Positions 1,032-63,507 of a DNA stretch of 64,000 nt are shown in pieces. Position 1 is the first letter of the stretch, and the number at the start of each line of letters is the position of its first letter. The notes below the pieces were generated by a model, which saw only the letters and a program-made list of their open reading frames with translations, did not search any database and was not told where the DNA came from. Made by a program: the position numbers and the translations under genes. This DNA is from a virus (taxonomy: Duplodnaviria > Caudoviricetes): the IMG/VR virus record IMGVR_UViG_3300031853_000006, positions 1 through 64,000 of that record. The stretch is one strand, 5' to 3'.

Positions 1032-1113
1032 GCAGGTATGGTGGAATTGGCAGACACGCAAGATTTAGGTTCTTGTGCTGCAAAGCGTGAGGGTTCAACT
1101 CCCTCTACCTGCA
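1032..1113 (+). tRNA. tRNA-Leu(TAG)
   Basis: GCAGGTA/TACCTGC acceptor stem, anticodon stem CAAGA/TCTTG with loop TTTAGGT, long variable arm, GGTTCAACT T-loop; CCA not encoded. Confidence 0.93.
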
Positions 1114-3330: not shown

Positions 3331-4122
3331 ATGGAAAGCATTTTTTCTAGCAAGCTGTATATGGCAAGCCCTAGAAAAGAGCAAATCAAAGCTGCTCTTG
3401 CATTTACGGGTAACGCCGAGCTCGTGCAGCAACTAGCTTCAAGCCTTGATGAAGAGTATCAGACTCCTCAGAATGTAGGCGAAGCGGAAGCGATCGAAGT
3501 AGAAGACGTCGAAACGGGAGAAGAAGATCTTTTTGTAGACGATGACATCAATCCTGAAACAGATCTAATGACTGTAGACGATCTAACTAACAAGTCTTCT
3601 GGATCAAACAAGTCCGCTAGTAAGCCTTCTAGTAAATCTAGCACACCTATCGGTCCTAAGGGGCCTAAGCCTAAGCGAACTGAATATACAGATGTTCCAG
3701 ACAGTGCGCCATCTGATGATGTCAGTCCAGATGCACCTGAACCAAAGAGCGATAATTCGGAAAAGGACGAAACAGAAGCGTCAACTAAAATAACTTCTTG
3801 TGAGCAGATCAGCTTGACCGTGCTTAAAGAATCACTCAACAGCAGAGAGGATACTAAGGGAGTATCTCGAATAGCAGAAAAAGAAAACGAAGTTTGGATC
3901 TACTACAAAGACGAAGTCAACCTCAATAACCTCATGACGGAAGTCATTGAATACATGATGTCAGCCGGATATGATACACTCGAGTTTAACAGGCTTGCAA
4001 GGTCAGATAACGCAATCGTTTTCCAAAAGACTGAAGGCACTCCTGAAGAACTTGAAAGCATAGAGCCGCAATACACTGATGAGTCAGTCGAGGAAGTAGG
4101 ATTGGAGGGCAAAGCCGAGTGA
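3331..4122 (+). CDS. hypothetical acidic protein with low-complexity linker
   Basis: ATG at 3331 after AAGGAG; TEAS/ITSC sites. Confidence 0.7.
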   Translation: MESIFSSKLYMASPRKEQIKAALAFTGNAELVQQLASSLDEEYQTPQNVGEAEAIEVEDVETGEEDLFVDDDINPETDLMTVDDLTNKSSGSNKSASKPSSKSSTPIGPKGPKPKRTEYTDVPDSAPSDDVSPDAPEPKSDNSEKDETEASTKITSCEQISLTVLKESLNSREDTKGVSRIAEKENEVWIYYKDEVNLNNLMTEVIEYMMSAGYDTLEFNRLARSDNAIVFQKTEGTPEELESIEPQYTDESVEEVGLEGKAE

Positions 4123-4850
4123 AAAGATTAGTGTACTCCACATTAGATGTAGAGGTAGATCCAGGATATATGCTCGATGCAGGAGACAATTCAGTCTTCT
4201 TAAAGAGCCGAAAGCCTAGTTTAACTACTGATATGATTAAAGAAATGATAGGAGCGATGTGCGATAGGCGGGGGTTAGATGCGGCTGACAAGCGTAAGTC
4301 ACAGAGCAACGGAATAAATATCGTTAGAACTAGAGATCAAATTGTAAAGGCGATGCTTAATCACGTTTGCACAGATAGTACCGAATATTATCAGATCGAG
4401 GGTGACGACTTCTGCTATAGAATGTCCTTCGAAGATTTCATGAAGAAATTCACAGTATGTGAACCTAAGTTCGGCTGTAATTATTACAGTCGCTGTATCC
4501 AGTGTGCAGAGGAGCTTGATGAAGAAGCATGGCCCGGATTTACATTCAATTTCGGACGCAAAGAAATCTTTCTCAAGAGCGATAATCAGAATCTTACTAC
4601 TCGAATAATACGAGATTTCATCAATATTGTATGCGACATCAAAGGCGTAGGGGACGCGATCCGAAAGAAAGCGCTTTACGACGAAGCAACACTCAAAGAT
4701 TTCCGTCGTCGTATTATGAAAGGGACGCTCGAGCATCATGTAACTGCTAACGGCACAGAATATTACTCAATTTCAGGGAAGGACTATTCTTGGAGCTACC
4801 CTGCAGATGAGTTCGAAGACAGTGTAATTGTCATGACAGCTCGAGAATAA
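4119..4850 (+). CDS. hypothetical protein (MKRLVYS N-terminus)
   Basis: GTG start overlapping the previous stop, GGAGG RBS. Confidence 0.7.
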   Translation: MKRLVYSTLDVEVDPGYMLDAGDNSVFLKSRKPSLTTDMIKEMIGAMCDRRGLDAADKRKSQSNGINIVRTRDQIVKAMLNHVCTDSTEYYQIEGDDFCYRMSFEDFMKKFTVCEPKFGCNYYSRCIQCAEELDEEAWPGFTFNFGRKEIFLKSDNQNLTTRIIRDFINIVCDIKGVGDAIRKKALYDEATLKDFRRRIMKGTLEHHVTANGTEYYSISGKDYSWSYPADEFEDSVIVMTARE

Positions 4851-4865
4851 TTTTTATAAAAAGTC

Positions 4866-4894
4866 TTGACAAATTCATAGAATTGTCATATAAT
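4866..4894 (+). promoter_or_regulatory. sigma70/sigmaA-type promoter
   Basis: TTGACA-17 nt-TATAAT. Confidence 0.85.
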
Positions 4895-4943
4895 ATAAGT
4901 ACACAACTAATTTGTAGCTTAACAGCTAAGGAGGAATTAAATT

Positions 4944-5141
4944 ATGAAACGAGTAGTTAAAGCAAGTTCAACCGCAGAAGCTGTATACAATGCTGTGGAG
5001 TTTCTTGGAAGTAGAGGAGCAGACGAGCACGACGTGCTCATGCACTTTTTCGATTACCTTCCAGCTGCAGAAAGCCTAGAGGTTCTGGAAGACTACATCA
5101 AGATGTGCGATCTCGATGATGAATGGGCAGCGTACAAGTAA
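4944..5141 (+). CDS. tagged small protein (MKRVVKAS)
   Basis: AAGGAGG RBS; shared N-terminal motif. Confidence 0.75.
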   Translation: MKRVVKASSTAEAVYNAVEFLGSRGADEHDVLMHFFDYLPAAESLEVLEDYIKMCDLDDEWAAYK

Positions 5142-5196
5142 GAAGAGTGGGACACGTATCGCAGATACGCATTCTAATAACAGGAGGAACAGTTCG

Positions 5197-5538
5197 ATGA
5201 AAAGATGGATACACGCATCAGATGAAGTAATGAAACAATCAATCGCAGATGACGAATATTATTCTACTACTCCACGAAACGAAGTAGAATTCGACCACGA
5301 CGTTGTCTGGAGCGTACAATTTTACCCAGCAGGTGCTTTTCTCCTCTATGATAAAGAAGTATTCGTGCTCGGTAAGACTTACAAAGAAGCAAGAGATCAG
5401 GGAGTTGTACTTGCAGAAGCATGGGGCTATCCGACAGACCCGTCACATTGCGTAGTGCAGTATGCTTATGTTTCGATCAATAGATGGTCCAGATTCAACA
5501 AAGACGAATGCGACGGCGTTGAATTCGGCATAGACTGA
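5197..5538 (+). CDS. MKRWIHA-tagged protein
   Basis: ATG at 5197 after AGGAGG. Confidence 0.8.
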   Translation: MKRWIHASDEVMKQSIADDEYYSTTPRNEVEFDHDVVWSVQFYPAGAFLLYDKEVFVLGKTYKEARDQGVVLAEAWGYPTDPSHCVVQYAYVSINRWSRFNKDECDGVEFGID

Positions 5539-5553
5539 GGGAGGAAGTCAATC

Positions 5554-5724
5554 ATGAAAAGATGGATACACGATCCTAACGAACCTCAAGATGAATTTGA
5601 CAGACAGTGGAAAGAGAAGTTTGGAGACGATGATGAAACTATGAAGTTTAATTCATTGGAAGAGCTCCATGATTGGCTTGAGGAAGTTAAGAGATTTGAA
5701 CCTGTTTACGACAAGTCAGTTTAA
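5554..5724 (+). CDS. MKRWIH-tagged 56-aa protein (below the ORF-track cutoff)
   Basis: GGAGG RBS; translated by hand MKRWIHDPNEPQ...YDKSV*. Confidence 0.7.
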   Translation: MKRWIHDPNEPQDEFDRQWKEKFGDDDETMKFNSLEELHDWLEEVKRFEPVYDKSV

Positions 5725-5740
5725 GGAGGAGTATTTAATC

Positions 5741-6067
5741 ATGAAAAGATGGGTACATGCAACTACTGAGTGTGTTTTCGGAATGGCTGTTGTAGATAAA
5801 GATGAATTCGACCTTCCATATGATATATGGCTTGACCCGGCAGGTGCTTCCAGGAATGTTAAACATTCACTGCCTCGAGTAAAGGTAGTTGTGGATGGTC
5901 AGCGAATTCCGTTTTCCATCACAGATGATCCTAAACCGCTTATTAAAAAGCAAATAAAAGGTGAACGGCGCATAAAGGAGTGGATCCTTAAAAATAAAGA
6001 AAATCTATTGAAACAATGGAACCGTGAGTTGACAGATAGTCAGGTTCTTAAAGTTCTAGTAAAGTGA
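5741..6067 (+). CDS. MKRWVHA-tagged protein, DUF4160-like
   Basis: H-x-x-PRVKV...EWI-x-x-N-x-E-x-LL-x-x-W pattern resembling DUF4160. Confidence 0.55.
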   Translation: MKRWVHATTECVFGMAVVDKDEFDLPYDIWLDPAGASRNVKHSLPRVKVVVDGQRIPFSITDDPKPLIKKQIKGERRIKEWILKNKENLLKQWNRELTDSQVLKVLVK

Positions 6068-6089
6068 TAAGTGAGGAGGGGATTAGCTC

Positions 6090-6326
6090 ATGCTAATAGA
6101 TAATGTGCTAGATGTGTTGAATAACTTATGTAACATACTCATCAATGATGGACAGGTTCCCGAAGAAGTAATTGAGATACTCTTGGATTCGGGAGCTAAT
6201 GTAGATATGTTACAGAAGATTGGATTCACTGATGACCAGATTTCTGATTACGCTTATTATGAAGCTAACATGTCCGGAAGGTCAGAAAGTGATATTCTTG
6301 CAGAATTATATAATACGCAAAAGTAG
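6090..6326 (+). CDS. acidic hypothetical protein
   Basis: GAGGAGG RBS. Confidence 0.7.
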   Translation: MLIDNVLDVLNNLCNILINDGQVPEEVIEILLDSGANVDMLQKIGFTDDQISDYAYYEANMSGRSESDILAELYNTQK

Positions 6327-16202: not shown

Positions 16203-16277
16203 CGCCCCTTCGCCAAATGGTTAAGGCACGAGTTTTTGGTACTCGTATTTTTGTGGGTTCGAGTCCCACAGGGGCTG
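16203..16277 (+). tRNA. tRNA-Gln(TTG)
   Basis: GCCCCT/AGGGGC acceptor, anticodon stem CGAGT/ACTCG with loop TTTTGGT, GTGGGTTCGAGTCCCAC T-arm. Confidence 0.88.
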
Positions 16278-26311: not shown

Positions 26312-27802
26312 ATGGCAACAGTAACTAAGCCACCGATCTTAGATGATACAGGTCAGGGAATTGTAGGAGCACTCGATGATATTCTTGAAACAGCCCAGCT
26401 TTCTGCTCCGATTGCAACGCTTGAACATATCGGAAAAGTAAAGCCAGACGGGATAACAGTCAGAACTGACAATAACGGAGTCCTTACAGTTGTCAAATCT
26501 GTAATTGAAATCCCGAGAGTTGATCAGGATACTTTCACCTATGATGGATCACAGAAAACACTCACATTCATCAATATCAATCCGGACGAGGTGCTTGTAA
26601 CTGATAATGTAGCAACTAATGCAGGGACATATACTTGCACATGTACGCTTAAGAACCCGAATGCGGTATGGAGTGATAGAACAGCAGCTCCGAAAACCTA
26701 TAACTATACAATCAATAAGGCAGCAGGTTCAATAGTATTGTCACCTAGTTCCGTTTCACTTACAGGTTCACAGACATCTGTAACTGTAGACGTAACAATT
26801 ATCGGCGATGGCGTAGCTGTTTTTGGGTCAAATGATACCTCGATTGCAACTGTAACCCCTGACTCGTTGACTATGTCAGGTACAATAACTATAAGCGGTA
26901 CCGGAACAAACGGCGATACAACTATATCAGCTGTACTTGCAGCCGGTAATAACTATACAGGAGACTCAACAACTTGCGAAGTTTCAGCGAGTTACATTCC
27001 GATGAAGACGTTTGCAGCAGCTACGGATGCTGAGATTGCTGAGATGGTCGCTGCAGCTGATGCAGGTCTCATTGACTTGTATGAAGACTGCGGTTGGCGG
27101 GTTGGGCAGGAACACACTACAACATTGAGTGCTATTGCGGGGTCTGGGACGTATGACGGCGTATCGTGGACAGGTAGACCGCAGCCTGAACAGTCAATTA
27201 CCTTCGTGCTCCTTCATAGGGGGCTCTATCAGTTACAGAAAGCTGTTAAGAATAAGGACGGAAGTTCTAGGAACACTTGCTCGTTTGTAGTAGGACTTAA
27301 AGGAACGCTATCGCAGAACGCAAATGTTGACTCTAGCTCACCTAAGCCCTCTTGGCGATCGACTTCATTGAGGACTTGGCTGAATAGTGGATTTGTTTCA
27401 GGTATCCCGTCAGCCTTGCTACCTGCTTTTAAACAATTCTACACTACCACAGGATACATCACTGACCTCACTTATGGATGGGAAAGTACTGATCAAACAG
27501 TAGATAGATTTTCCTTAGCTGCTGAAAAAGAAATTCACAATACTCATCAATACAGTATTACAGCTGAAGCTAATCTATTGACCCAATTTAGCTATTATGA
27601 GATTTCAGCTAATCGAATGAAAAGTCGAGTCGGTATGACCGGCTATGACGAATACTGGAACAGATCAGTTGGGTCATATAATTCGGTGAATCGTGATGGA
27701 ACTATGTATGTTACTTCTTATGTTAGGAGTGGCAATCCTTATCCTTCGGCAAGAACATGCAGTTATGACTCATGTTTCGTTTCGCCATTCGGCGTCATGT
27801 AA
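26312..27802 (+). CDS. receptor-binding/fibre protein paralog A (Ig-like region plus C-terminal DUF6273/CLec-like domain)
   Basis: VKPDG repeat, Ig-like middle, LRTWLN...W-x-RS...SPFGVM C-terminus; paralog of 31381 and 33529. Confidence 0.75.
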   Translation: MATVTKPPILDDTGQGIVGALDDILETAQLSAPIATLEHIGKVKPDGITVRTDNNGVLTVVKSVIEIPRVDQDTFTYDGSQKTLTFININPDEVLVTDNVATNAGTYTCTCTLKNPNAVWSDRTAAPKTYNYTINKAAGSIVLSPSSVSLTGSQTSVTVDVTIIGDGVAVFGSNDTSIATVTPDSLTMSGTITISGTGTNGDTTISAVLAAGNNYTGDSTTCEVSASYIPMKTFAAATDAEIAEMVAAADAGLIDLYEDCGWRVGQEHTTTLSAIAGSGTYDGVSWTGRPQPEQSITFVLLHRGLYQLQKAVKNKDGSSRNTCSFVVGLKGTLSQNANVDSSSPKPSWRSTSLRTWLNSGFVSGIPSALLPAFKQFYTTTGYITDLTYGWESTDQTVDRFSLAAEKEIHNTHQYSITAEANLLTQFSYYEISANRMKSRVGMTGYDEYWNRSVGSYNSVNRDGTMYVTSYVRSGNPYPSARTCSYDSCFVSPFGVM

Positions 27803-27867
27803 TCATAACCATTCAACAACAATACAAATCGCCTGTAGTAGAAGGAAAGTTTGTCTCATTAACAAAG

Positions 27868-28082
27868 CTCGACAAACAGGGCAACCTGAGTTCAAAGCCT
27901 TAACCAGATTTACTTGGTACGAGACAACGAGTAATCAGAACAAAAACACCCCTTGGTGGGAGCGTTTGCCTCGTTACGACGGCGATAACTCTTTTTGTTG
28001 TGTGCGAGGCGACCGTGCCAGCTCTAACCTTGCCAGCAACTATATTGATGGGTATGTGTTGTCGCCTTTCGGCTGCTTGTGA
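27868..28082 (+). pseudogene. internally deleted silent 3' cassette B
   Basis: LDKQGN-coding DNA joined directly to EFKALTRFTWYE...SPFGCL*. Confidence 0.7.
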
Positions 28083-28315
28083 TGAAGAAATCTTAACCCA
28101 TAACACCCATTGGTATCTATCAGATAGCAGACATTATACAATACATTGCACTATAAGGTATGACAGGATACAAACAACCGCAACAGGAGAAGCTCTCAAA
28201 CACTTCTGGATAAAGAAATCGAGCTTCTCCTGTTTTACTGAATAGATACGCGAAGCGGTACAAGATCGTCAAATCGCTTTCGGTAGAATGTTCTTCATCA
28301 TTAAAAATACAAAAA

Positions 28316-28841
28316 GTTGGACACCAACGGCAACTCAAGATCTACTTGTTCGTTTGTGGTTGGGGTGAAGGATTGTTTGTATAATGCAGGGACAATTACA
28401 GGTAACCCCGACCCTTGGAGCGTTTGGAAATATTCGAAAAGGCACAGTTGGTGCAACAGCGGATTCAGAAGTGCATTCAATTCATATCTCAGGTCAACAT
28501 TTAAGCAATTCAAGTGCATCACAGGCCGCTACAATAATAGTAAAACTGGCGGAGATAACTATATTACACAAGAATGGTTCACTTTTGCGGCAGCTAAAGA
28601 AGTTTTTAATCAAAGTGGTTATAGTACTGACAATGAAACTAATGCGCTGCGTCAGTTCTCCTGGTACAGTTTAACAGATAATTGGTATAAAAATAATGCC
28701 CCTTGGCCGAACACATGGTGGTTAAGGAGCCCTTCTTATCAAACACGGGAAGGAGAGTATTCGATAGTTTCAAATAGAGGTGCGGGCGAGGGTAACGGTT
28801 ATGATCCTATCCGAGGTATCTCGCCTTTCGGCGTAATGTAA
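28316..28841 (+). other. silent 3'-end cassette C
   Basis: Begins mid-domain at the 64-bp repeat, no RBS, ends SPFGVM*. Confidence 0.85.
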
Positions 28842-29498
28842 TTCACTACCTTACCTCAACACGTATAAAAGCTTGAAAACAAAGAATCAGCAGGGTTGCT
28901 CACCCTGCTTTTCTTATTGTGTTGTTTCTATTAAATAGCTATGTGTTATATGCAGCCGAAAGGCGCCAACCCAGAAGCATCGCTAGCGTTGTAACCGGTG
29001 GCGTAGCCGTTGCTGTGAACACGACAGAAAGGGTAGCCGGAGTCGTAATTAGGCGAACGCTCCCACCAATAGTAGGCGGAGCCATTTTGGTTTTTGATTC
29101 GATTGCTTGTAGTCTCGTACCACGTGAACCTTGTTAACGCTTTGAACTCTGTCAGGTTTGAGTATGCGGTTTGCTGACCTGCTTTTCCTCCCTGGCCGTA
29201 CGTCTCATCACCCTTGAACACTTCTGCTGCGGCAGGAAGTGCAAAGTAATCTTGAGACGTCGTAGTGGTTGAAGCATTGTATGCAGTTACAGTCTCGCAG
29301 TGGAACTGCTTGAACGTTGCTTGCAAGCTAACTGGCAACGATTGGCGGAACCCTCCATTGCACCAATAACGTCTTTTAGATGACTTCCATGAGCCTGCGT
29401 TAGTATTCGAAGGATTCATATAACCTGCCTCGCTCAAACAATCCTTCACCCCAACCACAAACGAACAAGTAGATCTTGAGTTGCCGTTGGTGTCCAAC
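28316..29498. repeat. 64-bp perfect inverted repeat, arms 28316-28379 and 29435-29498 (C/D)
   Basis: GTTGGACACCAACGGC...GAAGGATTGTTTG. Confidence 0.92.
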
Positions 29499-29704
29499 AC
29501 AGGAGTGACAAGATGATACAGTCCCTTATGCATCAACACTAACGTGATCTGTTGTTCAGGCTGTGATTCCCCGACTGACCATGATACTCCCTCATAAGTC
29601 CCCGAAGCCGGAATCGCCGCAAGCGTCGTCACATGCTCCTGCCCAACCCGCCAACCGCAGTCTTCATACAAGTCAATGAGACCTGCATCAGCTGCAGCGA
29701 CCAT
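28946..29704 (-). other. silent 3'-end cassette D
   Basis: Homology to paralog A begins exactly at the 68-bp repeat; ends APFGCI*. Confidence 0.88.
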
Positions 29705-29973
29705 TGTTTGTTTTTTACTCAACACACTCGAACAATCACACCCGTGTTGCGCATGAGCTGACGCCCTACTGTCGGTGCAGTACACACATTTCAGAAACAC
29801 CGCTTCGCACATCATAAGTGGTCAACAGGAGAAGCTCTAAGTGTCACACACTACAAGAACACTGTGTAGTTGTGAAACTAGAGTAGTAGCGAGCTTCTCC
29901 TGTTGCGGTTGTTGCGGAGTGCAAGTGAGGTGTTTTTGAGAAGGTGAATGATTCTTTTTGATCGATAGAGAAC

Positions 29974-30507
29974 GTCGTGGGTGTGAAGGATTGCTTGAGT
30001 GCTGAGGGGTATATGCATAGGAGTGACTATACTACAGGATACTGGTCTAGATGTAGCCGCAGGTATTGGTGCAATGGCGGATTCTTAAGCAGCATTTCAG
30101 ATGAATTGCGCCTCGCATTCAAACAATTCAATTGTAGTACTTGGGAGAGGGACGACACTTACAACTGGAGCCTTCACACAGTTTCGGATTATTTTGCACT
30201 ACCTGCCGAAAAAGAGGTGTGGGGAACTGACCCCGAAACTTCTGGCCAGCTATGGAGTCCAGCTAAAGAGCAAGCTGTACTTACTGTATTCGCTTATTAT
30301 GAAACTAGATCTAATATAACTAAATATCGAGGGAGTGGCATAAATAGTTGGTATGAGCGTTCGACTGGTACTATGACTGATGGTAACGGTCCACATTTTT
30401 GCTATTGCTATTATAATCGCTCGCAAGAATTCTATGTGCCGAATGACATGCGGTACAACGAGACGATGTTGAATAACCAAGGTATCTCGCCATTCGGAGT
30501 TATGTAA
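29974..30507 (+). other. silent 3'-end cassette E
   Basis: Starts VVGVKDCLS; about 50-bp imperfect inverted match to cassette F; ends SPFGVM*. Confidence 0.85.
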
Positions 30508-30516
30508 AATTGAAAT

Positions 30517-30566
30517 AAAGTGCTGATTCATGCATCTGCATTGCAGGATTGAGTCAGCACTTTATT
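30517..30566. terminator. bidirectional terminator-like hairpin between convergent cassettes E and F
   Basis: AAAGTGCTGATTCA...TGAGTCAGCACTTT. Confidence 0.65.
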
Positions 30567-30616
30567 TAAGTTCATCTAGGATTTAATGCAAGGTCTAGCT
30601 AGCCTATTGAAGAATT

Positions 30617-31208
30617 TCATAAACATCCTACAGGGGATATTCCTCGAACAGAGTCAGCAAATCCAAAGCTGCTGCCCGGCTCAGTACCCATCACAAAGCA
30701 ATTGTAGCGGATGTCGTTATACCAAGGTGAGCGTTCTGACCAAGTTGATACATAAGTTCCGCCATGCCCTTGAGCCTTATAAAGATTTCGTTCTATTTCA
30801 TACCATTCAAAGCGAGTTAGCTGATTGAACTCATATATGTTGGAGTATGCGGTTCCTGTCCCTGCCGAGCTACCGTTGCCGTAAGTTCTGTGTCCTTTCC
30901 ACACTTCGGCTGCTGCAGGTAAGAAGAAATAGTCTTGAGTTTGCTGTACAGTTGAACTGTTATAAGATTCGGCAGTTAATACGATGCATTTCTTGAATAC
31001 ATTTCTCAGTGACTCAGGCACCGATTGCCTGAATCCTCCGTTACACCACTGTCTACGAGCACATCCCTTCCAAGATGTAGAATAACTACCACTCCTATGC
31101 ATATACCCATTCGTACTCAAGCAATCCTTCACTCCTACGACGAAGGAGCACGTTGTGCGGGGGTTGCCTTGTTTGTCGAGGACGGGGGTTGTTAGTTGGT
31201 AGAGGCCT
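30617..31208 (-). other. silent 3'-end cassette F
   Basis: Starts GLYQLTTPVLDKQGNP at the 91-bp repeat; ends SPVGCL*. Confidence 0.88.
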
Positions 31209-32379
31209 GGTTTGGCACATCTGCCCAGACTAAAATCAAGCCCGGCGCAGCGTCAAATTACACTTGCAAACTGATGATTAACCTTGTTTATTACTTGAAA
31301 AGAATTGTAGTTCAACTTACCATTCTACAAAGGAAACAAACAAATTCTTCATTATCTACAAGGAAGGAGAAAATAATCATATGGCAACTGTTACACAACC
31401 ACCGATTATTGATTCAACGGGTCAAGATATTGTCGACAAGCTCGAAGAGATCAGCGAAGAGATTCAATCGTCGATTACAACCGCAGCGGTTGGTCGTCTT
31501 GGCTTAGTTAAACCCGATGGAGATACTATCGAAGTAACCGCAGACGGAACGATTTCGGCAACAAAGATATACATTCCGACTCCCATAATCAGCACTCAGA
31601 CCTACACTTACAACGGATCTGAGCAGACGCTAGTCTTTACTTCAATCAGTACCTCTGATGTAGTTATAACTGGAAACAAGGCGACTAACGCAGGTAGCTA
31701 TTCTTGCACAGTTACGCTTAAGAATCCAAGTGCGATGTGGTCAGACGGGACATCAGCTCCGAAGGTCTATCCGTGGTCAATAGCCAAAGCAACTGGATCA
31801 ATCACATTTTCAGAAAGTTCCATCGAATTGACGACAGGGACACCCTCAGCAACTGTAGTAGTAACTATCGTGTCAGACGGAAACGCAACGATAGCAGCTG
31901 CTGATCCAACAGTGGTATCTGTTTCGCCTTCTATTATGAGCGCATCCGGTAACTTAACAATAACTGGATTAAAGACAGGCGCAACAACGGTTACCGCGAC
32001 GCTTCCGGCAACAACAAACTTTACGGGTGCGACAACATCTTTAACAGTCGATGCCCAGATGCTTCCGATGAAAACATTTGCAGCTGCAACTGATGCCGAA
32101 ATAGCTCAGATGGTTGCAGCCGCTGATGCTGGACAGATCGACCTTTACGAGGATTGCGGATGGAGAGTAGGGCAAGAGCATCAAACAACGATCTCAGCTA
32201 TTGCAGTATCTGGTACATACGACGGAGTCACTTGGTCAGTTGGTGAATCACAGCCGCAGCAAACAATAACACTCGTGTTAATGCACAGAGGCCTCTACCA
32301 ACTAACAACCCCCGTCCTCGACAAACAAGGCAACCCTCGCAGCACGTGCTCCTTCGTCGTCGGAGTGAAGGATTGCTTG
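31118..32379. repeat. 91-bp inverted repeat (4 mismatches), arms 31118-31208 and 32289-32379 (F/G)
   Basis: AGGCCTCTACCAACTAACAACCCCCGTCCTCGACAAACAAGGCAACCC...GGATTGCTTG. Confidence 0.92.
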
Positions 32380-32868
32380 TCTGCTGCTGGCTATATGAAC
32401 TTGACAAATACTAACGGAGGCTCGTGGAATGCATCAAATAGAAGACCATGGTGCAATGGAGGATTTCGTCAATCCTTATCGGATAGCTTGCGGTCTGTAT
32501 TTAAGCAGTTTGAGACAGTGACGGCTCAAACTTATAGTGGCTCAACAAATCAAACATCGCAAGACTACTTTGCCCTCCCTGCCGCAGCAGAAGTGTTTAA
32601 GGGCGACTCGATGTACGGAACTGGAGGTTCGGCAGGTCCAAAAACTGCATACTCAAACCTAACAGAATTCAATGCTCTAACAAGGTTCACATGGTACGGA
32701 ACAACGAGCAATAGGGTCAAAACCAGAAAAGATTCCGCCTACCCTTGGCGGGAGCGCTCGCCTTATTACGGCTCCAGCAACCATTTCTGTTTTGTGAGCA
32801 ACAACGGCGGTACCGACCTTACCACTGCTAACGGTACTGTTGGATTGTCGCCTTTCGGCTGCTTGTGA
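31381..32868 (+). CDS. receptor-binding/fibre protein paralog G
   Basis: Same architecture as A; AACCTT motif at 31280 and GGAAGGAG RBS. Confidence 0.8.
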   Translation: MATVTQPPIIDSTGQDIVDKLEEISEEIQSSITTAAVGRLGLVKPDGDTIEVTADGTISATKIYIPTPIISTQTYTYNGSEQTLVFTSISTSDVVITGNKATNAGSYSCTVTLKNPSAMWSDGTSAPKVYPWSIAKATGSITFSESSIELTTGTPSATVVVTIVSDGNATIAAADPTVVSVSPSIMSASGNLTITGLKTGATTVTATLPATTNFTGATTSLTVDAQMLPMKTFAAATDAEIAQMVAAADAGQIDLYEDCGWRVGQEHQTTISAIAVSGTYDGVTWSVGESQPQQTITLVLMHRGLYQLTTPVLDKQGNPRSTCSFVVGVKDCLSAAGYMNLTNTNGGSWNASNRRPWCNGGFRQSLSDSLRSVFKQFETVTAQTYSGSTNQTSQDYFALPAAAEVFKGDSMYGTGGSAGPKTAYSNLTEFNALTRFTWYGTTSNRVKTRKDSAYPWRERSPYYGSSNHFCFVSNNGGTDLTTANGTVGLSPFGCL

Positions 32869-33349
32869 TGATAGCATACAAAACAAGCTCCGCAACGTCG
32901 TTTAACTTTGCGGAGCTTTTTCTTTGATTAAGTTGAGAAGATTAGTTTGTTATAAGCAGCCGAAAGGCGCTAACCCAGAAACAATGTTAGCGTAGCGATC
33001 GGCGGCGGAGCCATAGCCGCTAACAAGACAGAAACCGCTGCTGTCGCGGTAACGAGGCGAACGCTCCCACCAATAGTCGGCGGATCCATTCCAATTTTTA
33101 ACTCGGTTACTTGTTGTTTGGTAATATGTTATTGCTGACAACGCGTTTGCTTCGGTAGTTGTGGAATAAGTCCGAGAATTGAAGATTTCCTTTTCAGCGA
33201 ACAGTGCAAAGTAGTCTTGTGAAGTAATATTTGCTCCTCCGGAAGTCGAGCCGCTGTAATCCCCAGTCACTGTCTCAAACTGCTTAAATACAGACCGCAA
33301 GCTATCCGATAAGGATTGACGAAATCCTCCATTGCACCATGGTCTTCTA
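32439..33349. repeat. 84-bp perfect inverted repeat, arms 32439-32522 and 33266-33349 (G/H)
   Basis: TAGAAGACCATGGTGCAATGG...GAGACAGTGAC. Confidence 0.92.
32950..33349 (-). other. silent 3'-end cassette H
   Basis: Starts at the 84-bp repeat; ends APFGCL*. Confidence 0.88.
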
Positions 33350-33528
33350 ATCGAGTAACCCTGTCCACAATTCTACGAACCCTCTAAACTCCCACACTGC
33401 AAACTACACTTAAATCTCAACAGACCAACCTTGTTTAATACTACATTGAAGGAGAGTTCTACCCCTCCGATCTTATACAAAGAAACACAACGAGAATTCT
33501 TCAAATACAAGGAAGGAGAAATATCAAT

Positions 33529-35022
33529 ATGGCAACAGTCACAGAGCCTTTATTGCTTGATGAAACCGGTCAGGCAATGATTACGCAACTTGAGAACATC
33601 AATGATGCACTCGAAGTTAAGGTAACACCTGCAACGACTGATAAGTTAGGGCTTGTCAAGCCTGATGGAGTTACTCTTAATGTCACACCCGACGGGACTA
33701 TATCGTCATCTCGCATCTTTGTTCAGGTTCCTGTAGTCAGCGAACAGACCTACACCTACAACGGGCTGACGCAGTACCTCATATTCACATCAATCTCTCG
33801 AGAAGATGTTACTGTCACAGGTGATTCTGCTACTGATGCAGGTAATTACACTTGTACAGTTTCACTTAACAATCCGAACGGAATGTGGAGCGACGGAACA
33901 GTCGCACCTAAAACATTCCCTTGGTCAATTCAGAAAGCAACCGGTTCAATCACATTATCTGAATCATCGCTTTCGCTCGATACTAACACACCCTCCGCAG
34001 TAGTTAATGTAACTATCGTAGGTGACGGAACAGCGACGTTTGCAGCAGAAGACCCAATGATTGCGAGTGCTTCGCCGTCAGTTATAACCTATTCATCTCC
34101 TGTAACAATAACAGGACTCCGGACAGGTTCTACAACGATCACAGCAACATTGGCTGCAACAACAAATTACACAGGAGACAGTGCAACTATAGAAGTTACA
34201 GCTGAGATGGTTCCGTTAAAGACGTTTGCAGCTGCAACTGATTCAGAAATCCGACAGATGGTTGAAGCAGCAGATGCGGGACTTATTGATCTCTACGAAG
34301 ACTGCGGATGGAGAGTCGGTCAAGAGCATCAGACGACTGTTGCAGCAATGGCAGCATCTGGTACATACGACGGAGTCTCCTGGTCAGTGGGTGAGACTCA
34401 TGCAGAGCAAACAATAACACTTGTATTGATGCATCAGGGCTTGTATCAGTTAGTCAACGCAGTTAAGGATAAGCAAGGAAATAACAGGACAACCTGCTCT
34501 TTCGTCGTCGGAATGAAGGATTGCCTTAACGAAGGCGGATATATGAATTCTACTAATACAAATAGTGGTTCATGGAACGGATGTGCAAGAAGATCCTGGT
34601 GCAACTCTGCATTCCGCCAAGCCCTCCCTGCCGATTTAAGAGCAGTGTTTAAGCAGTTTGAAACGGTCACCGCAACGGAGTACAACGCTAGTACGACCAC
34701 AACATCACAAGACTACTTCGCCTTAGCAGCTGCAGCCGAAGTGTTCAAGGGCGATCCTGATTATGGTCAAGGCGGCTCAGCCGGTCAGCAAACCGCATAC
34801 TCAAACCTGACCGAGTTCAACGCACTGACGCGATTCACTTGGTATGAGACATCAGCGAATAGGAGGAAGGCACAAGGACAGAACGGATCTAATATATTTT
34901 GGTATGAAAGGTCACCCTGTGCAGATGTTACAGCGACGTGGCTCTGTGTTAATCAAGGAGGAGGTCCTCGAGGGAGTGGGGCTAATAATCAATTCGGATT
35001 AACATTCTTCGGCTGCTTATAA
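33529..35022 (+). CDS. receptor-binding/fibre protein paralog I
   Basis: Same architecture; AACCTT motif at 33427. Confidence 0.8.
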   Translation: MATVTEPLLLDETGQAMITQLENINDALEVKVTPATTDKLGLVKPDGVTLNVTPDGTISSSRIFVQVPVVSEQTYTYNGLTQYLIFTSISREDVTVTGDSATDAGNYTCTVSLNNPNGMWSDGTVAPKTFPWSIQKATGSITLSESSLSLDTNTPSAVVNVTIVGDGTATFAAEDPMIASASPSVITYSSPVTITGLRTGSTTITATLAATTNYTGDSATIEVTAEMVPLKTFAAATDSEIRQMVEAADAGLIDLYEDCGWRVGQEHQTTVAAMAASGTYDGVSWSVGETHAEQTITLVLMHQGLYQLVNAVKDKQGNNRTTCSFVVGMKDCLNEGGYMNSTNTNSGSWNGCARRSWCNSAFRQALPADLRAVFKQFETVTATEYNASTTTTSQDYFALAAAAEVFKGDPDYGQGGSAGQQTAYSNLTEFNALTRFTWYETSANRRKAQGQNGSNIFWYERSPCADVTATWLCVNQGGGPRGSGANNQFGLTFFGCL

Positions 35023-35531
35023 TCTGCAAATCAAAAGAACTGCCATCAAAAGGCAGTTCTTTGAATGTACGCAGAAAGTTTAATCATACTAGCCCGCTGC
35101 CTACAACTGTGCGGCAGCGGGCTTCGCGGAGAGTGTTCTGTTCCTCCGCGAAATAAGATAGAGCCATCTAGTTCAGCCTAGTTGCATCAAACCGCCAATT
35201 TTAGGCGGTTTTCGTTTTGTGTCACAAGCAGCCGAAAGGCGACAACCCACGAGCATTGCTAGCGTTGCTACCGCCGGCGCTGGCGTTGCCCACAGCACAA
35301 AAACCGTCGCCGTTGTAGCAACGGGGCGAACGCTCCCACCAAGCGGAGGCGGAGCCCTCCACATTTTTAGCTCTGTTGCTCGTTGTCTCATACCACGTGA
35401 AACGAGATAGTGCGTTAAATTCGGTCAGGTTTGACCATGCGGTTCCTTGACCTACTGAAACACCTGTACCATAATCCGGATCCCCCTTGAACACTTCGGC
35501 TGCAGCTGCTAAGGCGAAGTAGTCTTGTGAT
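34704..35531. repeat. 48-bp perfect inverted repeat (64 bp with 2 mismatches), arms 34704-34767 and 35468-35531 (I/J)
   Basis: ATCACAAGACTACTTCGCCTTAGCAGCTGCAGCCGAAGTGTTCAAGGG. Confidence 0.92.
35222..35531 (-). other. silent 3'-end cassette J
   Basis: Starts SQDYFALAAAAEVFKG; ends SPFGCL*. Confidence 0.88.
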
Positions 35532-35534
35532 TAA

Positions 35535-35909
35535 TCAAAGGCAGCCGAAGGGAGATAGACCATAATTACCTATCACATAATAATTAGTAGGAGTGCCAGA
35601 GCTGCTCGCTAGACACTCATCAGTGTCATTATAGTAAGCAGGCGAACGCTCCCACCAACCATAGGCGGATCCGTTCATAGTTTTGATCCTGGTTGTTGTC
35701 CGATAGTAAGTGATAGCAGTCAGCGCGTTTGCTTCGTTTGTCGTGCTATTGGGATTTGATGCATGAACCTCCTTTTCGGCAAACAGTGCAAAGTAGTCTT
35801 GCGATGTAATGTTTGAGCCTCCGGTTTGATAATTATTAGATTGACCAGTAATGCAGTTAAACTTCTTAAACACTGCTCTTAAATCGGCAGGGAGGGCTTG
35901 GCGGAATGC
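35535..35909 (-). other. silent 3'-end cassette K
   Basis: Starts AFRQALPADLRAVFK; ends SPFGCL*. Confidence 0.88.
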
Positions 35910-36483: not shown

Positions 36484-37104
36484 ATGGCCCAAGTAACATC
36501 CCCTCTCCTGCTAGACGGAACAGGCCAGACCATGCTCACGAAACTCGAAGGAATTCGTGCAGCACTTGCTGCAGAGGTAACCCCTGCAACAACAGCAACG
36601 GCAGGTATCGTCAAGCCGGACGGAACCACAATTACAATAGATGGTAACGGAACCATTTCAGCTGCCGTAGCCCCTGCAACAACATCGGTCGCAGGTACTG
36701 TAAAGCCGGACGGAACCACCATTACCGTCACCAACGACGGAACAATTTCTGCAGATGTTGCCTTTGCAACAACCGCAAAAGCAGGTACTGTAAAGCCGGA
36801 CGGAACGTCGATCACAGTATCGAATGACGGCACCATCTCAGCACAAGCAGGCGAAATGGTGTTCCAGAGTCACTTAATAGAAGCATCAGGATGGTCAAGT
36901 AACGTATATTCATTTGAGCTGGAATATCCGAGTGCTTCATATGACATTCTTGACATCACACCTAGTGAGACTGCATCAGATGCACAGAGAAAAGCATGGA
37001 TTTCGGCAGATTGCGGTGGGTTCAGAGCAACTAACACAATTTATGCACACGGAACCGTGCCCACAACCGACATTCCCGCAGTATTGCTAGTAAGGTCAAA
37101 GTAA
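36484..37104 (+). CDS. tail-fibre protein with three tandem AT-x3-AG-x-VKPDGT-x-IT-x4-GTISA repeats
   Basis: Three ~90-bp tandem repeats at about 36580-36843; N-terminus like paralogs A/G/I. Confidence 0.7.
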   Translation: MAQVTSPLLLDGTGQTMLTKLEGIRAALAAEVTPATTATAGIVKPDGTTITIDGNGTISAAVAPATTSVAGTVKPDGTTITVTNDGTISADVAFATTAKAGTVKPDGTSITVSNDGTISAQAGEMVFQSHLIEASGWSSNVYSFELEYPSASYDILDITPSETASDAQRKAWISADCGGFRATNTIYAHGTVPTTDIPAVLLVRSK

Positions 37105-38135: not shown

Positions 38136-39615
38136 ATTATTTATTAAATATAACGATTCTTACGAATTTTCACTGAATCTATAAGAATCTAGTGAAATAT
38201 ATAACCTTAAATATAATTAGATATCTAAACAAAGAATGAGAAAGGAGGTGAAACATATGAAAACTTGGAAATCTAACCTTAAGCATCTTAGTCTAAAAGA
38301 TTATGAAATCCTTCGTGATATGTGCCATGCAAGCAAGAATGTTTACAATGCTTCGCTTTATAACATTCGGCAACATTTCTTTCAACAAAGCGAATTTCTT
38401 CGATACGAAGCTAATTATCACTTGATGAAAGGTACCAATGTCTACGATTATCTTGGTAATGTTGCCCAGCAATCTATGAAAGCAGCTGACAGTGCATTCA
38501 AAGCTTTCTTTGCTTTGATTAAAATGTATAAGCAAGGCAAGTTGGAGAGTAGGCCTAACATTCCACATTACTTACCTAAAGATGGATTTTTCAAAATCGA
38601 GTTCAACAGCCCTAGGGACCAGAAGAAGAATATCGAGCAAGGCTACTATCAGCTACCAATGTCTCGATACCTTGCAACCAAGTACGAAGGCATCAGGGTC
38701 AAGATAACAATTCCGCCTTACTTGCGTGACAAACATATTCGACAGATCCACATCATTCCTAGATGCAATGGCAAGTACTTCGAAGCCTGTTTCTTGTTTG
38801 ACGATGTCGAAAATCAAAAAGTTAATCTCGATTTAACTAAAGCATTAGCAATTGATTTAGGTGTCAACAATTTTGCAACTTGCGTAACTTCTGAAGGAGA
38901 TTCATTTATAATTGACGGTAAGAAAATCAAATCAATCAACCAATGGTATAACAAAGAAAATGCCAGACTGTCAAGTATTAAGTATAAACAGAAGTTAAGC
39001 AAAGAGGCAACCAACAGGCAAGCACGATTGTCCGCAAAACGAGGACGCCGCATCAATGATTTCATCTATTGTTCTGCAAAGTACATAGTTGAATATTGCA
39101 TCGATCATAACATTGGTAATCTTGTTGTAGGATACAATGACGGCTTTCAGGATAATCCTAATCTAGGTAAAGTCAACAATCAAACCTTTGTGATGCTACC
39201 TTACGGCAAATTCAAAAGCAGGCTCGAACATTTATGCAACTCGGTTGGGATAACCTATACCAAACAAGAAGAATCTTATACCTCAAAAGCAAGTTTCTTT
39301 GACCTAGATGATATGCCAATTTGGAACCCTGATAATCCTCATCAAGGCAGCTTTTCTGGGAAGCGAATCTATCGAGGTCTGTATAGAAGAAACAATGGAA
39401 CTAATCTTAACGCTGATGTAAATGGAGCGCTAAATATCCTAAGAAAATGTAATGTTGTAGACCTTTCGGTCTTATACAGTAGAGGCACTGTCGTCGTGCC
39501 TACAAGAATAAGGCTATCCTGACTTTTTCAGGAGGAAACTCAAACAGCAACCTTCTTGCGAATAGAATTCTATTAAAAATCTTAATGTAACTTGATAATT
39601 TTTAATTTATTCTAA
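38100..39615 (+). mobile_element. solo tnpB element (IS200/IS605-IS607 superfamily), ends approximate
   Basis: tnpB without tnpA, AT-rich flanks, gene fragments on both sides. Confidence 0.6.
38257..39522 (+). CDS. tnpB: RNA-guided endonuclease TnpB
   Basis: AIDLGVNN (RuvC-I), LVVGYNDGF, QEESYTSKAS, NADVNGALNI (RuvC-III). Confidence 0.92.
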   Translation: MKTWKSNLKHLSLKDYEILRDMCHASKNVYNASLYNIRQHFFQQSEFLRYEANYHLMKGTNVYDYLGNVAQQSMKAADSAFKAFFALIKMYKQGKLESRPNIPHYLPKDGFFKIEFNSPRDQKKNIEQGYYQLPMSRYLATKYEGIRVKITIPPYLRDKHIRQIHIIPRCNGKYFEACFLFDDVENQKVNLDLTKALAIDLGVNNFATCVTSEGDSFIIDGKKIKSINQWYNKENARLSSIKYKQKLSKEATNRQARLSAKRGRRINDFIYCSAKYIVEYCIDHNIGNLVVGYNDGFQDNPNLGKVNNQTFVMLPYGKFKSRLEHLCNSVGITYTKQEESYTSKASFFDLDDMPIWNPDNPHQGSFSGKRIYRGLYRRNNGTNLNADVNGALNILRKCNVVDLSVLYSRGTVVVPTRIRLS

Positions 39616-62398: not shown

Positions 62399-62962
62399 AT
62401 GAAAGTATTCAGAGAGATGGAAACAGATACAAATACCTTCAAAATAGGAGACAGGATCGAAGTACAGTTCGGGAATGAATCTCACTACGCAACAGCCATC
62501 CAGCAAAGAGGCTATGAAATGCTCTTTCTAACCGATGATTACCTCGACGATGCAATGCCTATGAATCCAACACCCTTGACTGAGGGAGGATGGGCAGAGA
62601 GTGAACTCAGGAAAAGACTGCAGAGTGTAGCAGAAACCGTCGACATCAAAGATCAGCTAGTGCCCTTTGAAAACGGGGACCTTTTGACTCTCTTAAGTAT
62701 TCAAGAGATGTTCGGACTTGACAAGAGCTTCAATGAATGCGAAGGGCAGATTGAGTGGCTGAAAGATCGCAGACACAGAATCACAGAAAGAAAGGGCGAT
62801 CCTTACGAATGGGGATGGCTGCGCTCAGTCGTATCCGCGTCGAGTTTCGCGATTGTCGACAGTGACGGCTGTGCGGACCGTGGGGGTGCGTCCTACGCTC
62901 ATGGCGTCTGCCCAGCTTTCCTGATCAAGAATACTATCACAGAAAGCGAGGTAGAGGAATGA
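62399..62962 (+). CDS. stand-alone DUF6273/CLec-like protein
   Basis: W-x-x-SELRK-x-L, LLS-x-x-E, WLRS...GVCPAF. Confidence 0.7.
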   Translation: MKVFREMETDTNTFKIGDRIEVQFGNESHYATAIQQRGYEMLFLTDDYLDDAMPMNPTPLTEGGWAESELRKRLQSVAETVDIKDQLVPFENGDLLTLLSIQEMFGLDKSFNECEGQIEWLKDRRHRITERKGDPYEWGWLRSVVSASSFAIVDSDGCADRGGASYAHGVCPAFLIKNTITESEVEE

Positions 62963-63507
62963 AGAACTCAATGGAGGTATTAAGAGAGATCGAGACAAAA
63001 ACAGATCGTTTGCAGGTCGGGGATAGAATAAAAGTTAGCTTTTCAGGAGAAGAGCACTATGCAACGGCTATTCAGCAAAGAGGCGATGTGATGCTCTTTC
63101 TGACTGACGACTACCTCGATGACGCTATGCAGATGAACCCTACAGACACGACTGAGAGAGGATGGGCAGGGAGTGAGCTCAGAAAAAGACTGCAGGATAT
63201 AGCGGACAACACAGATATAAATGATCAGCTGATACCCTTCGAGAACGGAGATCTTCTGACTCTTCTGAGCATCCGGGAGATGTTTGGACTCGATGAAAAT
63301 TTTGATGAGTGTGACGGTCAGATTGAATGGCTAAAGGATCGCAGACACAGGATCGCATTAAGAAAAGGAGAATCCAACGAATGGGGGTGGCTTCGCTCCG
63401 TCATGTCGGCGACGCATTTCGCTAATGTCTACAACAATGGGTTAGTGAACTACTACTACGCGGGGAGTGCTATTGGCGTCCGTCCAGCTTTCCTGCTTAA
63501 GTTATAG
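62959..63507 (+). CDS. tandem paralog, DUF6273/CLec-like protein
   Basis: Highly similar to the previous gene except the WLRS...GVRPAF segment. Confidence 0.7.
   Translation: MKNSMEVLREIETKTDRLQVGDRIKVSFSGEEHYATAIQQRGDVMLFLTDDYLDDAMQMNPTDTTERGWAGSELRKRLQDIADNTDINDQLIPFENGDLLTLLSIREMFGLDENFDECDGQIEWLKDRRHRIALRKGESNEWGWLRSVMSATHFANVYNNGLVNYYYAGSAIGVRPAFLLKL

Follow-up and report, generated by a model that had tools for sequence, protein, structure and literature searches.

A candidate tip-switching array of three phage fiber genes and eight silent cassettes joined by pair-specific inverted repeats

The stretch of DNA analyzed here (the window) comprises the first 64 kb of the IMG/VR virus record IMGVR_UViG_3300031853_000006, which is 116,896 bp long, is an estimated 78% complete, and lacks end repeats. 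Between positions 26312 and 35921 the window holds three full-length paralogous fiber genes, designated A, G, and I, together with eight 5′-truncated in-frame cassettes (B, C, D, E, F, H, J, and K). On balance, we favor the reading that the tips of the three fiber proteins are swapped by DNA inversion at pair-specific blocks of homology and that these tips originated through a diversity-generating retroelement (DGR); the DNA would then belong to a large phage that keeps spare receptor-binding tips in reserve for its three paralogous fiber genes. This reading builds on the anatomy of the array, the in-frame products of simulated inversions, a DGR signature in the tips, and the recurrence of the design in a distant relative. 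The tip domain (DUF6273), the DGR-type tips, and the recurrence are new with respect to the initial annotation of this DNA.

The units of the array were found by a stop-to-stop scan combined with BLASTP and were then aligned with MAFFT (table 1). The proteins encoded by A, G, and I share 48-63% amino acid identity with one another, and all three genes have strong ribosome-binding sites. The eight partial units align in frame with them from an internal point through the stop codon, with no stops and no frameshifts, and no Shine-Dalgarno sequence was seen in the DNA inspected upstream of the cassettes; the ORF (open reading frame) scan, BLASTP, and alignment thus agree with the initial annotation, which had described three full paralogs and eight C-terminal cassettes without ribosome-binding sites. 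Because all eight cassettes are open and because pairs of silent units show an excess of third-position change (e.g., 14, 8, and 26 differences at the first, second, and third codon positions between H and K), the cassettes have been kept as coding sequence. An assembly artefact was rejected as an explanation, as misassembly cannot yield eight divergent, open, 5′-truncated paralogs.

All units except B match the Pfam model DUF6273 (PF19789). This domain is described as a C-type-lectin-like DGR target whose variable region lies at the C-terminal end (PMC10743442, PMC11792537), and the C-lectin assignment used here is taken from that literature rather than from a fold search of our own; a whole-protein fold search was dominated by immunoglobulin (Ig)-like matches and returned nothing on the tip domain. 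In the AlphaFold model of G, a disordered N-terminus (residues 1-60) precedes two Ig-like domains modeled with confidence (~65-230); the C-terminal domain spans residues 238-495, of which the last ~80 are of low confidence. In the predicted plan of the fiber protein, a short anchor at the N-terminus is followed by two Ig-like domains and, at the C-terminus, by a C-lectin-like DUF6273 domain, of which the eight unexpressed cassettes would represent alternative C-terminal parts. Outside the record the closest homolog is P0003, with 61% identity over residues 65-495; its gene immediately follows the baseplate J and Mu gp48-like genes in the tail module of a myovirus, a location that supports a tail fiber or receptor-binding role for A, G, and I.

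Each of the eight cassettes starts exactly at a block of high identity to an oppositely oriented unit. Six of these blocks contain exact runs of 45-84 nt, compared with a background identity of ~70%, and in three of them (I/J, F/G, and I/K) the similarity extends beyond the exact run; E/F and B/D are lesser blocks (table 1). All six exact blocks of at least 45 nt are inverted, although only 30 of the 55 possible pairs of units are in opposite orientation, and exact direct repeats reach 27 nt at most. In codon-aligned profiles, identity at third codon positions is 1.0 within the blocks and 0.1-0.5 outside them. Given this difference, the blocks are maintained as DNA rather than through constraint on the protein, a pattern that points either to ongoing homogenization or to selection at the DNA level. 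Beyond the 3′ end of the exact run, identity falls off gradually in I/J, F/G, and A/D, as heteroduplex tracts would give, whereas C/D, G/H, and I/K have sharp ends.

Within the domain the blocks occupy five depths (at about aa 244, 304-326, 354-360, 393, and 429). No k-mer of 7-12 nt, with zero to three mismatches allowed, occurs in all eight blocks beyond the level of shuffled controls; the only recurrent word, GTGAAGGATTG, arises because the C/D, E/F, and F/G blocks cover the same protein position. These results sustain most of what the initial annotation had claimed for the repeats: an exact-match scan reproduced their lengths and partners, the block depths and the alignment bear out crossover points staggered in frame along the domain, and the comparison with shuffles bears out the lack of an obvious shared core. 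Its proposal that switching is independent in three fibers holds in part. The blocks do divide the units into three groups (A-D, E-H, and I-K), but relationships at the 3′ ends cross these groups, with D, H, J, and G sharing one variable-region family and A, C, and E another common 3′ end.

When single and nested inversions at the blocks were simulated, all products were intact chimeric ORFs of 484-502 aa (table 1). The units themselves change their nearest neighbor along the domain: D is closest to A, then to I, then to F or G, and then to H; J is closest to I and then to D; and H is closest to G, then to K, and then to D. Such segmental changes are the pattern that past staggered exchanges would produce.

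The tips of several units carry DGR-type variable regions, which are clear in G, D, H, and J and less clear in B and K; all six end in a conserved element, TCGCCTTTCGGCTGC, that resembles an initiation of mutagenic homing (IMH) sequence. Comparison was possible with relatives in which complete DGRs (variable repeat, template repeat, RVT_1 reverse transcriptase, and small accessory ORF) adjoin fiber-gene homologs (L001, 11771-12591; L003, 11425-12247; L010, 7904-8858). In L001, L003/L004, and L010 the variable and template repeats are 135-142 nt long, their mismatches fall almost entirely at template adenines, and the reverse transcriptase adjoins the repeat pair; TCGCCTTTCGGCTGC is the counterpart of the IMH region of the relatives, which reads GGCTGTCT in the variable repeat and GGATATCT in the template. 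When G, D, H, and J are compared over their final 48 codons, variable sites number 25, 23, and 14 of 47 at the three codon positions, whereas an upstream control (G vs. D, aa 300-447) gives 27, 26, and 83 of 148. Variable codons in the tips are NNC or NNT. With the templates of the three relatives, rather than a template of the phage itself, as reference, 33 of the 38 columns that hold adenine in the templates vary among G, D, H, and J, compared with 22 of the 94 other columns (Fisher P = 2e-11). D differs from H and from J at 59-66% of adenine columns and 8-10% of the others; G is somewhat more diverged (15-20% at non-adenine columns), and B and K are 27-36% apart, as far as the templates of different phages. 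Because the variation tracks the template-adenine positions of the relatives and shows this codon-position pattern, the tips of G, D, H, and J, and more remotely those of B and K, were in all likelihood made by DGR mutagenesis.

The retroelement itself would have been either lost or encoded in the unsequenced part of the genome. No match to PF00078 (reverse transcriptase) is present in the 116.9-kb record, and a blastn search of the variable region against the record returned only the six variable-region copies, each of which was rejected as a template, none having an adenine-restricted mismatch spectrum. No remnants of Avd or of a reverse transcriptase were found downstream of K (36-41.6 kb). 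According to the protein database a 145,798-bp contig carries the same proteins as the record, and the matches listed for the L001 reverse transcriptase include none from this contig, which is weak evidence. A template repeat of this family would match TGGTGGGAGCGTTCGCCT...GGCTGC.

The design recurs in L018 (Ga0326513_10012428), a 6.1-kb contig from a rumen or gut metagenome with ~50% amino acid identity. Positions 4048-6098 of this contig hold three truncated DUF6273 units in the order + + -, two of which start at the domain positions of D and C, and the contig contains a 77-nt perfect inverted repeat, inside which it ends, and a 95-nt inverted repeat at 85% identity. No recombinase is encoded in the adjacent 4 kb, and a look-up of an L018 cassette returned the same contig only. 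As L018 shows the same layout, the cassette-and-repeat design is not a one-off. In the other relatives the genes are full-length, single or in tandem, and often accompanied by a DGR, and cassettes are absent. An exact look-up of G found no close relative, profile scans of viral, metagenome, and genome contigs gave distant relatives only, and a scan of IMG/VR with a 17-nt block motif gave chance matches only.

Recombination across a block would invert the DNA between its two arms, so that the fixed start of a fiber gene acquires another tip while the one it displaces goes into storage. Since the blocks are nested at five depths, successive inversions would build chimeric tips, and chimeric domains are to be expected because the crossover depths differ. 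The tips themselves would have been made by DGR mutagenesis. The most likely catalyst is general homologous recombination, provided by the host or by a phage function that is unrecognized or unsequenced; we favor it over one invertase acting at one site because there is no common site, the blocks are pair-specific, and no recombinase was found. The initial annotation had noted no recombinase in the 64 kb and had proposed a search of the rest of the genome for serine or tyrosine recombinases and for genes of the Sak, Erf, RecT, or UvsX type. This search extends the negative result to the whole 116.9-kb record, which has no match to PF00239 or PF00589 and in which batch Pfam and PHROG scans gave no resolvase or integrase families. 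That inversion really takes place, with its frequency and its enzyme, is what we infer from the arrangement.

Several observations weigh against this reading. No RecA, RecT, ERF, or AAA_24 (Sak4-type) gene is present in the 116.9-kb record either. The E/F and B/D blocks are degraded, with exact runs of at most 19 nt, and would be poor substrates. Inversion between F and G would turn the 5′ two-thirds of G to the minus strand, against all neighboring genes, and no promoter could be shown inside that segment. The variable regions differ at 8-20% of non-adenine columns and hence are not currently homogenized by one template. No close relative was available for comparison of orientations (megablast against phages; IMG/VR scans with G or a neighboring gene). 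Finally, the record is incomplete and the 145.8-kb contig shares its proteins, so that the part not seen here could encode an invertase or a DGR. Taking these points together, we still hold inversion at pair-specific blocks, acting on tips of DGR origin, to be somewhat the better-founded account.

A more far-reaching version can be put forward only tentatively. It would be an invertase-free engine with two tiers, in which homologous recombination deals chimeric C-lectin tips to the three genes and expressed as well as stored tips are hypermutated by a DGR, possibly one encoded in the unsequenced part; alternatively, an archive of DGR-made variants has replaced a lost DGR. Silent tips would stay open under such a DGR because NNC and NNT codons cannot become stop codons.

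A conventional multiple-inversion system would place the activity in a serine or tyrosine invertase, encoded either by the host or in the ~20% of the phage that is unsequenced, with its sites hidden in the repeats and the long identity as a by-product. Repeats of 0.62 kb do flank the C segment of P1, the record is 78% complete, the C/D, E/F, and F/G blocks all cover GTGAAGGATTG, and ~20 nt of the C/D block are conserved as DNA in the distant L018. The described phage fiber switches, moreover, all use an invertase (Gin, Cin, Min; Rin, PMC6109161; FR-phi gin, PMC13418256). However, known systems have the invertase beside the segment, whereas neither PF00239 nor PF00589 is matched here in 116.9 kb and L018 has no invertase within 4 kb; the eight blocks share no k-mer beyond chance and lie at five non-homologous positions, and the gradual decay of identity in I/J, F/G, and A/D is unlike a sharply bounded site. 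We therefore regard this explanation as improbable.

It is likewise improbable that the array is an evolutionary relic of past duplications, inversions, phage exchanges, and captured DGR tips, in which useful switching has ceased and three fixed fibers are expressed. The absence of a recombinase, reverse transcriptase, or template repeat from the record, the decay of the E/F and B/D blocks, and the drift of the variable regions at non-adenine sites would all fit such a relic, but six blocks are still perfect over 45-84 nt while 50-90% of synonymous sites have changed in the background, the eight cassettes are open with coding-type substitution patterns, and the design recurs in L018.

Quite unlikely, finally, is non-reciprocal gene conversion from silent donors, with the 5′ block and the 3′ TCGCCTTTCGGCTGC as flanks. 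In Neisseria pilE/pilS and Borrelia vlsE, promoterless partial copies form a reservoir for an expression locus and yield mosaic products by RecA-dependent one-way conversion, which uses homology on both flanks and has no orientation requirement. The units of the array are likewise mosaic, most have a conserved 3′ end (with an exact match of 27 nt between B and G), identity tapers off gradually on the 3′ side of several blocks, B, C, and E are oriented like the genes, and F is awkwardly placed for inversion; yet, unlike in those systems, long homology is present at the 5′ edge only and is always inverted, which conversion does not need, the 3′ homology is short (16-27 nt), and B and C are nested inside the A/D segment, as fits sequential inversion.

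Table 1. Units, homology blocks, variable regions, and hairpins of the array (window coordinates), with the products of simulated inversions
Feature	Position	Partner position	Strand	Description
Fiber gene A	26312-27802		+	496 aa, expressed; ribosome-binding site AGAAGGGGGA; C-terminal DUF6273 domain
Cassette B	27888-28082		+	From G-equivalent aa 429; last 65 codons only; 27 nt of 3′ end identical to 3′ end of G
Cassette C	28316-28841		+	From G-equivalent aa 313; first 64 nt are the C/D block
Cassette D	28946-29704		-	From G-equivalent aa 244; largest cassette; blocks to A, C, and B
Cassette E	29973-30507		+	From G-equivalent aa 326; degraded E/F block at start
Cassette F	30617-31208		-	From G-equivalent aa 304; divergent from G; block to G
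Fiber gene G	31381-32868		+	495 aa; disordered N-terminus, two Ig-like domains, DUF6273 domain
Cassette H	32950-33349		-	From G-equivalent aa 354; first 84 nt are the G/H block
Fiber gene I	33529-35022		+	497 aa
Cassette J	35222-35531		-	From G-equivalent aa 393; block to I
Cassette K	35535-35909		-	From G-equivalent aa 360; block to I
A/D block	27044-27111 (in A)	29637-29704		68 nt exact
C/D block	29435-29498 (in D)	28316-28379		64 nt exact
B/D block	29090-29149 (in D)	27888-27947		60 nt at 82%
E/F block	31090-31142 (in F)	29973-30025		53 nt at 89%
F/G block	32289-32397 (in G)	31100-31208		109 nt at 90%, 48 nt exact
G/H block	32439-32522 (in G)	33266-33349		84 nt exact
I/K block	34609-34659 (in I)	35859-35909		51 nt at 98%, 45 nt exact
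I/J block	34704-34851 (in I)	35384-35531		48 nt exact, ~147 nt at 86%
Variable region of G	32722-32868		+	DGR-type; last 48 codons
Variable region of D	28946-29092			Family of G
Variable region of H	32950-33096			Family of G
Variable region of J	35222-35365			Family of G
Variable region of B	about 27950-28082			Remoter family member
Variable region of K	35535-35681			Remoter family member
Hairpin between C and D	28889-28909		.	Two-way
Hairpin after E	30513-30567			
Hairpin between G and H	32885-32918			
Hairpin after I	35035-35061			
Hairpin after J	35189-35211			
Simulated inversion A × D				Intact product, 496 aa
Simulated A × D, then recombination with C				Intact product, 487 aa
Simulated inversion G × H				Intact product, 485 aa
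Simulated inversion I × K				Intact product, 484 aa
Simulated inversion I × J				Intact product, 494 aa
Simulated inversion F × G				Intact product, 499 aa
Simulated E × F, then F × G				Intact product, 502 aa

The hairpins that the initial annotation had described as terminator-like and lying between convergent pairs are present at C/D, E, G/H, I, and J and are absent after A, B, F, and K; hairpins also follow the variable regions of the relatives, yet those of the array look terminator-like too. A homologous noncoding hairpin element (AACAACCGCAACAGGAGAAGCTC ... GAGCTTCTCCTGTT) lies just 5′ of C (28173-28270) and, in inverted orientation, of D (29820-29913), which suggests that these two cassettes were duplicated together with their upstream flank. 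The motif AACCTTGTTTAATAC upstream of G and I was rejected as a general promoter, as it is not enriched in the window and corresponds to paralogous leader sequences.

Downstream of the array, a 206-aa protein (36484-37104) is 47% identical over its first 60 residues to the N-terminus of A, G, and I and contains three 90-nt tandem repeats (36557-36800) after this anchor-like part; it may be a fourth protein with the same anchor. Two small tandem DUF6273 paralogs are encoded far from the fiber locus (62399-62962, 187 aa; 62959-63507, 182 aa), with C-termini that are alignable, divergent, and variable-region-like (WGWLRSV...GV.PAFL) and for which the record has no template copy. The short stand-alone DUF6273 proteins P0052 and P0053 were rejected as cassettes, as they are tandem expressed genes. 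A TnpB of 428 aa (38236-39522), with OrfB_IS605 and Cas12f-like TNB domains, lies 2.3 kb downstream of the cassette array in a patch of 37% GC and is probably an insertion sequence; it was set aside as a catalyst of inversion, being an IS605-type insertion in a low-GC patch without link to the blocks. A TnpB is also found near the DGR of L003.

Nearly all genes of the record are on the plus strand. Batch Pfam and PHROG scans show that it encodes a T4-like portal, endolysins, a baseplate wedge protein, a helicase, two NAD-ligase-like ORFs, a RecU-like Holliday-junction resolvase, a queuine tRNA-ribosyltransferase homolog, a TnpB, and many HNH/homing endonucleases, the last including four DUF7487 proteins; two tRNA genes are in the window (1032-1113 and 16203-16277). 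No DNA polymerase family is among the listed matches of these scans, which for 36-70 kb comprise 25 of 35 PHROG families, and the replication module may lie in the missing part of the record. In a profile scan the sole relative in the genome collection was a metagenome-assembled Bacillota genome from goat rectum, and among cultured phages the nearest are those of Faecalibacterium, at 27-28% identity; because of these two relationships the host is probably a gut member of the Bacillota.

To our knowledge, host-range switching by DNA inversion in phages is known only in the form of one invertase, one short site, and one gene. The array resembles Min of p15B, Gin/Cin/Pin, and Rin of Bifidobacterium prophages (PMC6109161) in having a constant 5′ receptor-binding part and opposite promoterless 3′ cassettes that lack a start site and fuse in frame, and its nested segments would permit multiple inversions as in Min and Rin. 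Those systems, however, have one short shared crossover site (the 11-bp rix in Rin; PMC6109161), an adjacent invertase, and one gene, whereas in the array the repeats of 45-150 nt are pair-specific, staggered, and devoid of a common core, three genes are served, and the 117 kb contain no invertase; neither an adjacent invertase nor a shared short site was found in the available sequence. In design it is closest to the phase-variable hsdS loci, especially spnIII/cod (PMC6620402, PMC4948785), where long in-frame inverted repeats in paralogous half-genes are staggered and inversions make chimeric specificity subunits; long in-frame staggered inverted repeats between paralogous partial genes are likewise found here. 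In pneumococcal spnIII, inversion at long repeats continues when neither the cognate recombinase nor any other known site-specific one is present (PMC6620402). The hsdS loci differ in that they encode a bacterial methylase-specificity protein rather than a phage fiber, normally contain a tyrosine recombinase, and have no DGR-type variable regions.

With the DUF6273/C-lectin DGRs (BPP-1 Mtd; PMC10743442, PMC11792537) the tips share the target domain, the C-terminal variable region with adenine-linked variation, the NNC/NNT codons, the IMH-like 3′ end, and the downstream hairpin, and relatives of up to 61% identity are true DGR targets. Unlike in those DGRs, the record has neither a reverse transcriptase nor a template repeat, no Avd lies downstream of K, five of the six variable regions of the family (D, H, J, B, and K) are in silent truncated cassettes, and the regions also differ at non-adenine positions.

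If the favored reading is correct, the same switching outcome that invertases provide would be reached through long pair-specific homology blocks at several depths of a binding domain, in an arrangement that serves three genes and allows chimeric tips. The locus would show, as a natural map, where the DUF6273 C-lectin fold tolerates crossovers, and it bears on the means by which long inverted repeats, such as those of pneumococcal spnIII, invert when no dedicated recombinase is present. It would also link DGR hypermutation and cassette storage on one protein fold, which suggests that DGR output can be archived and re-dealt.

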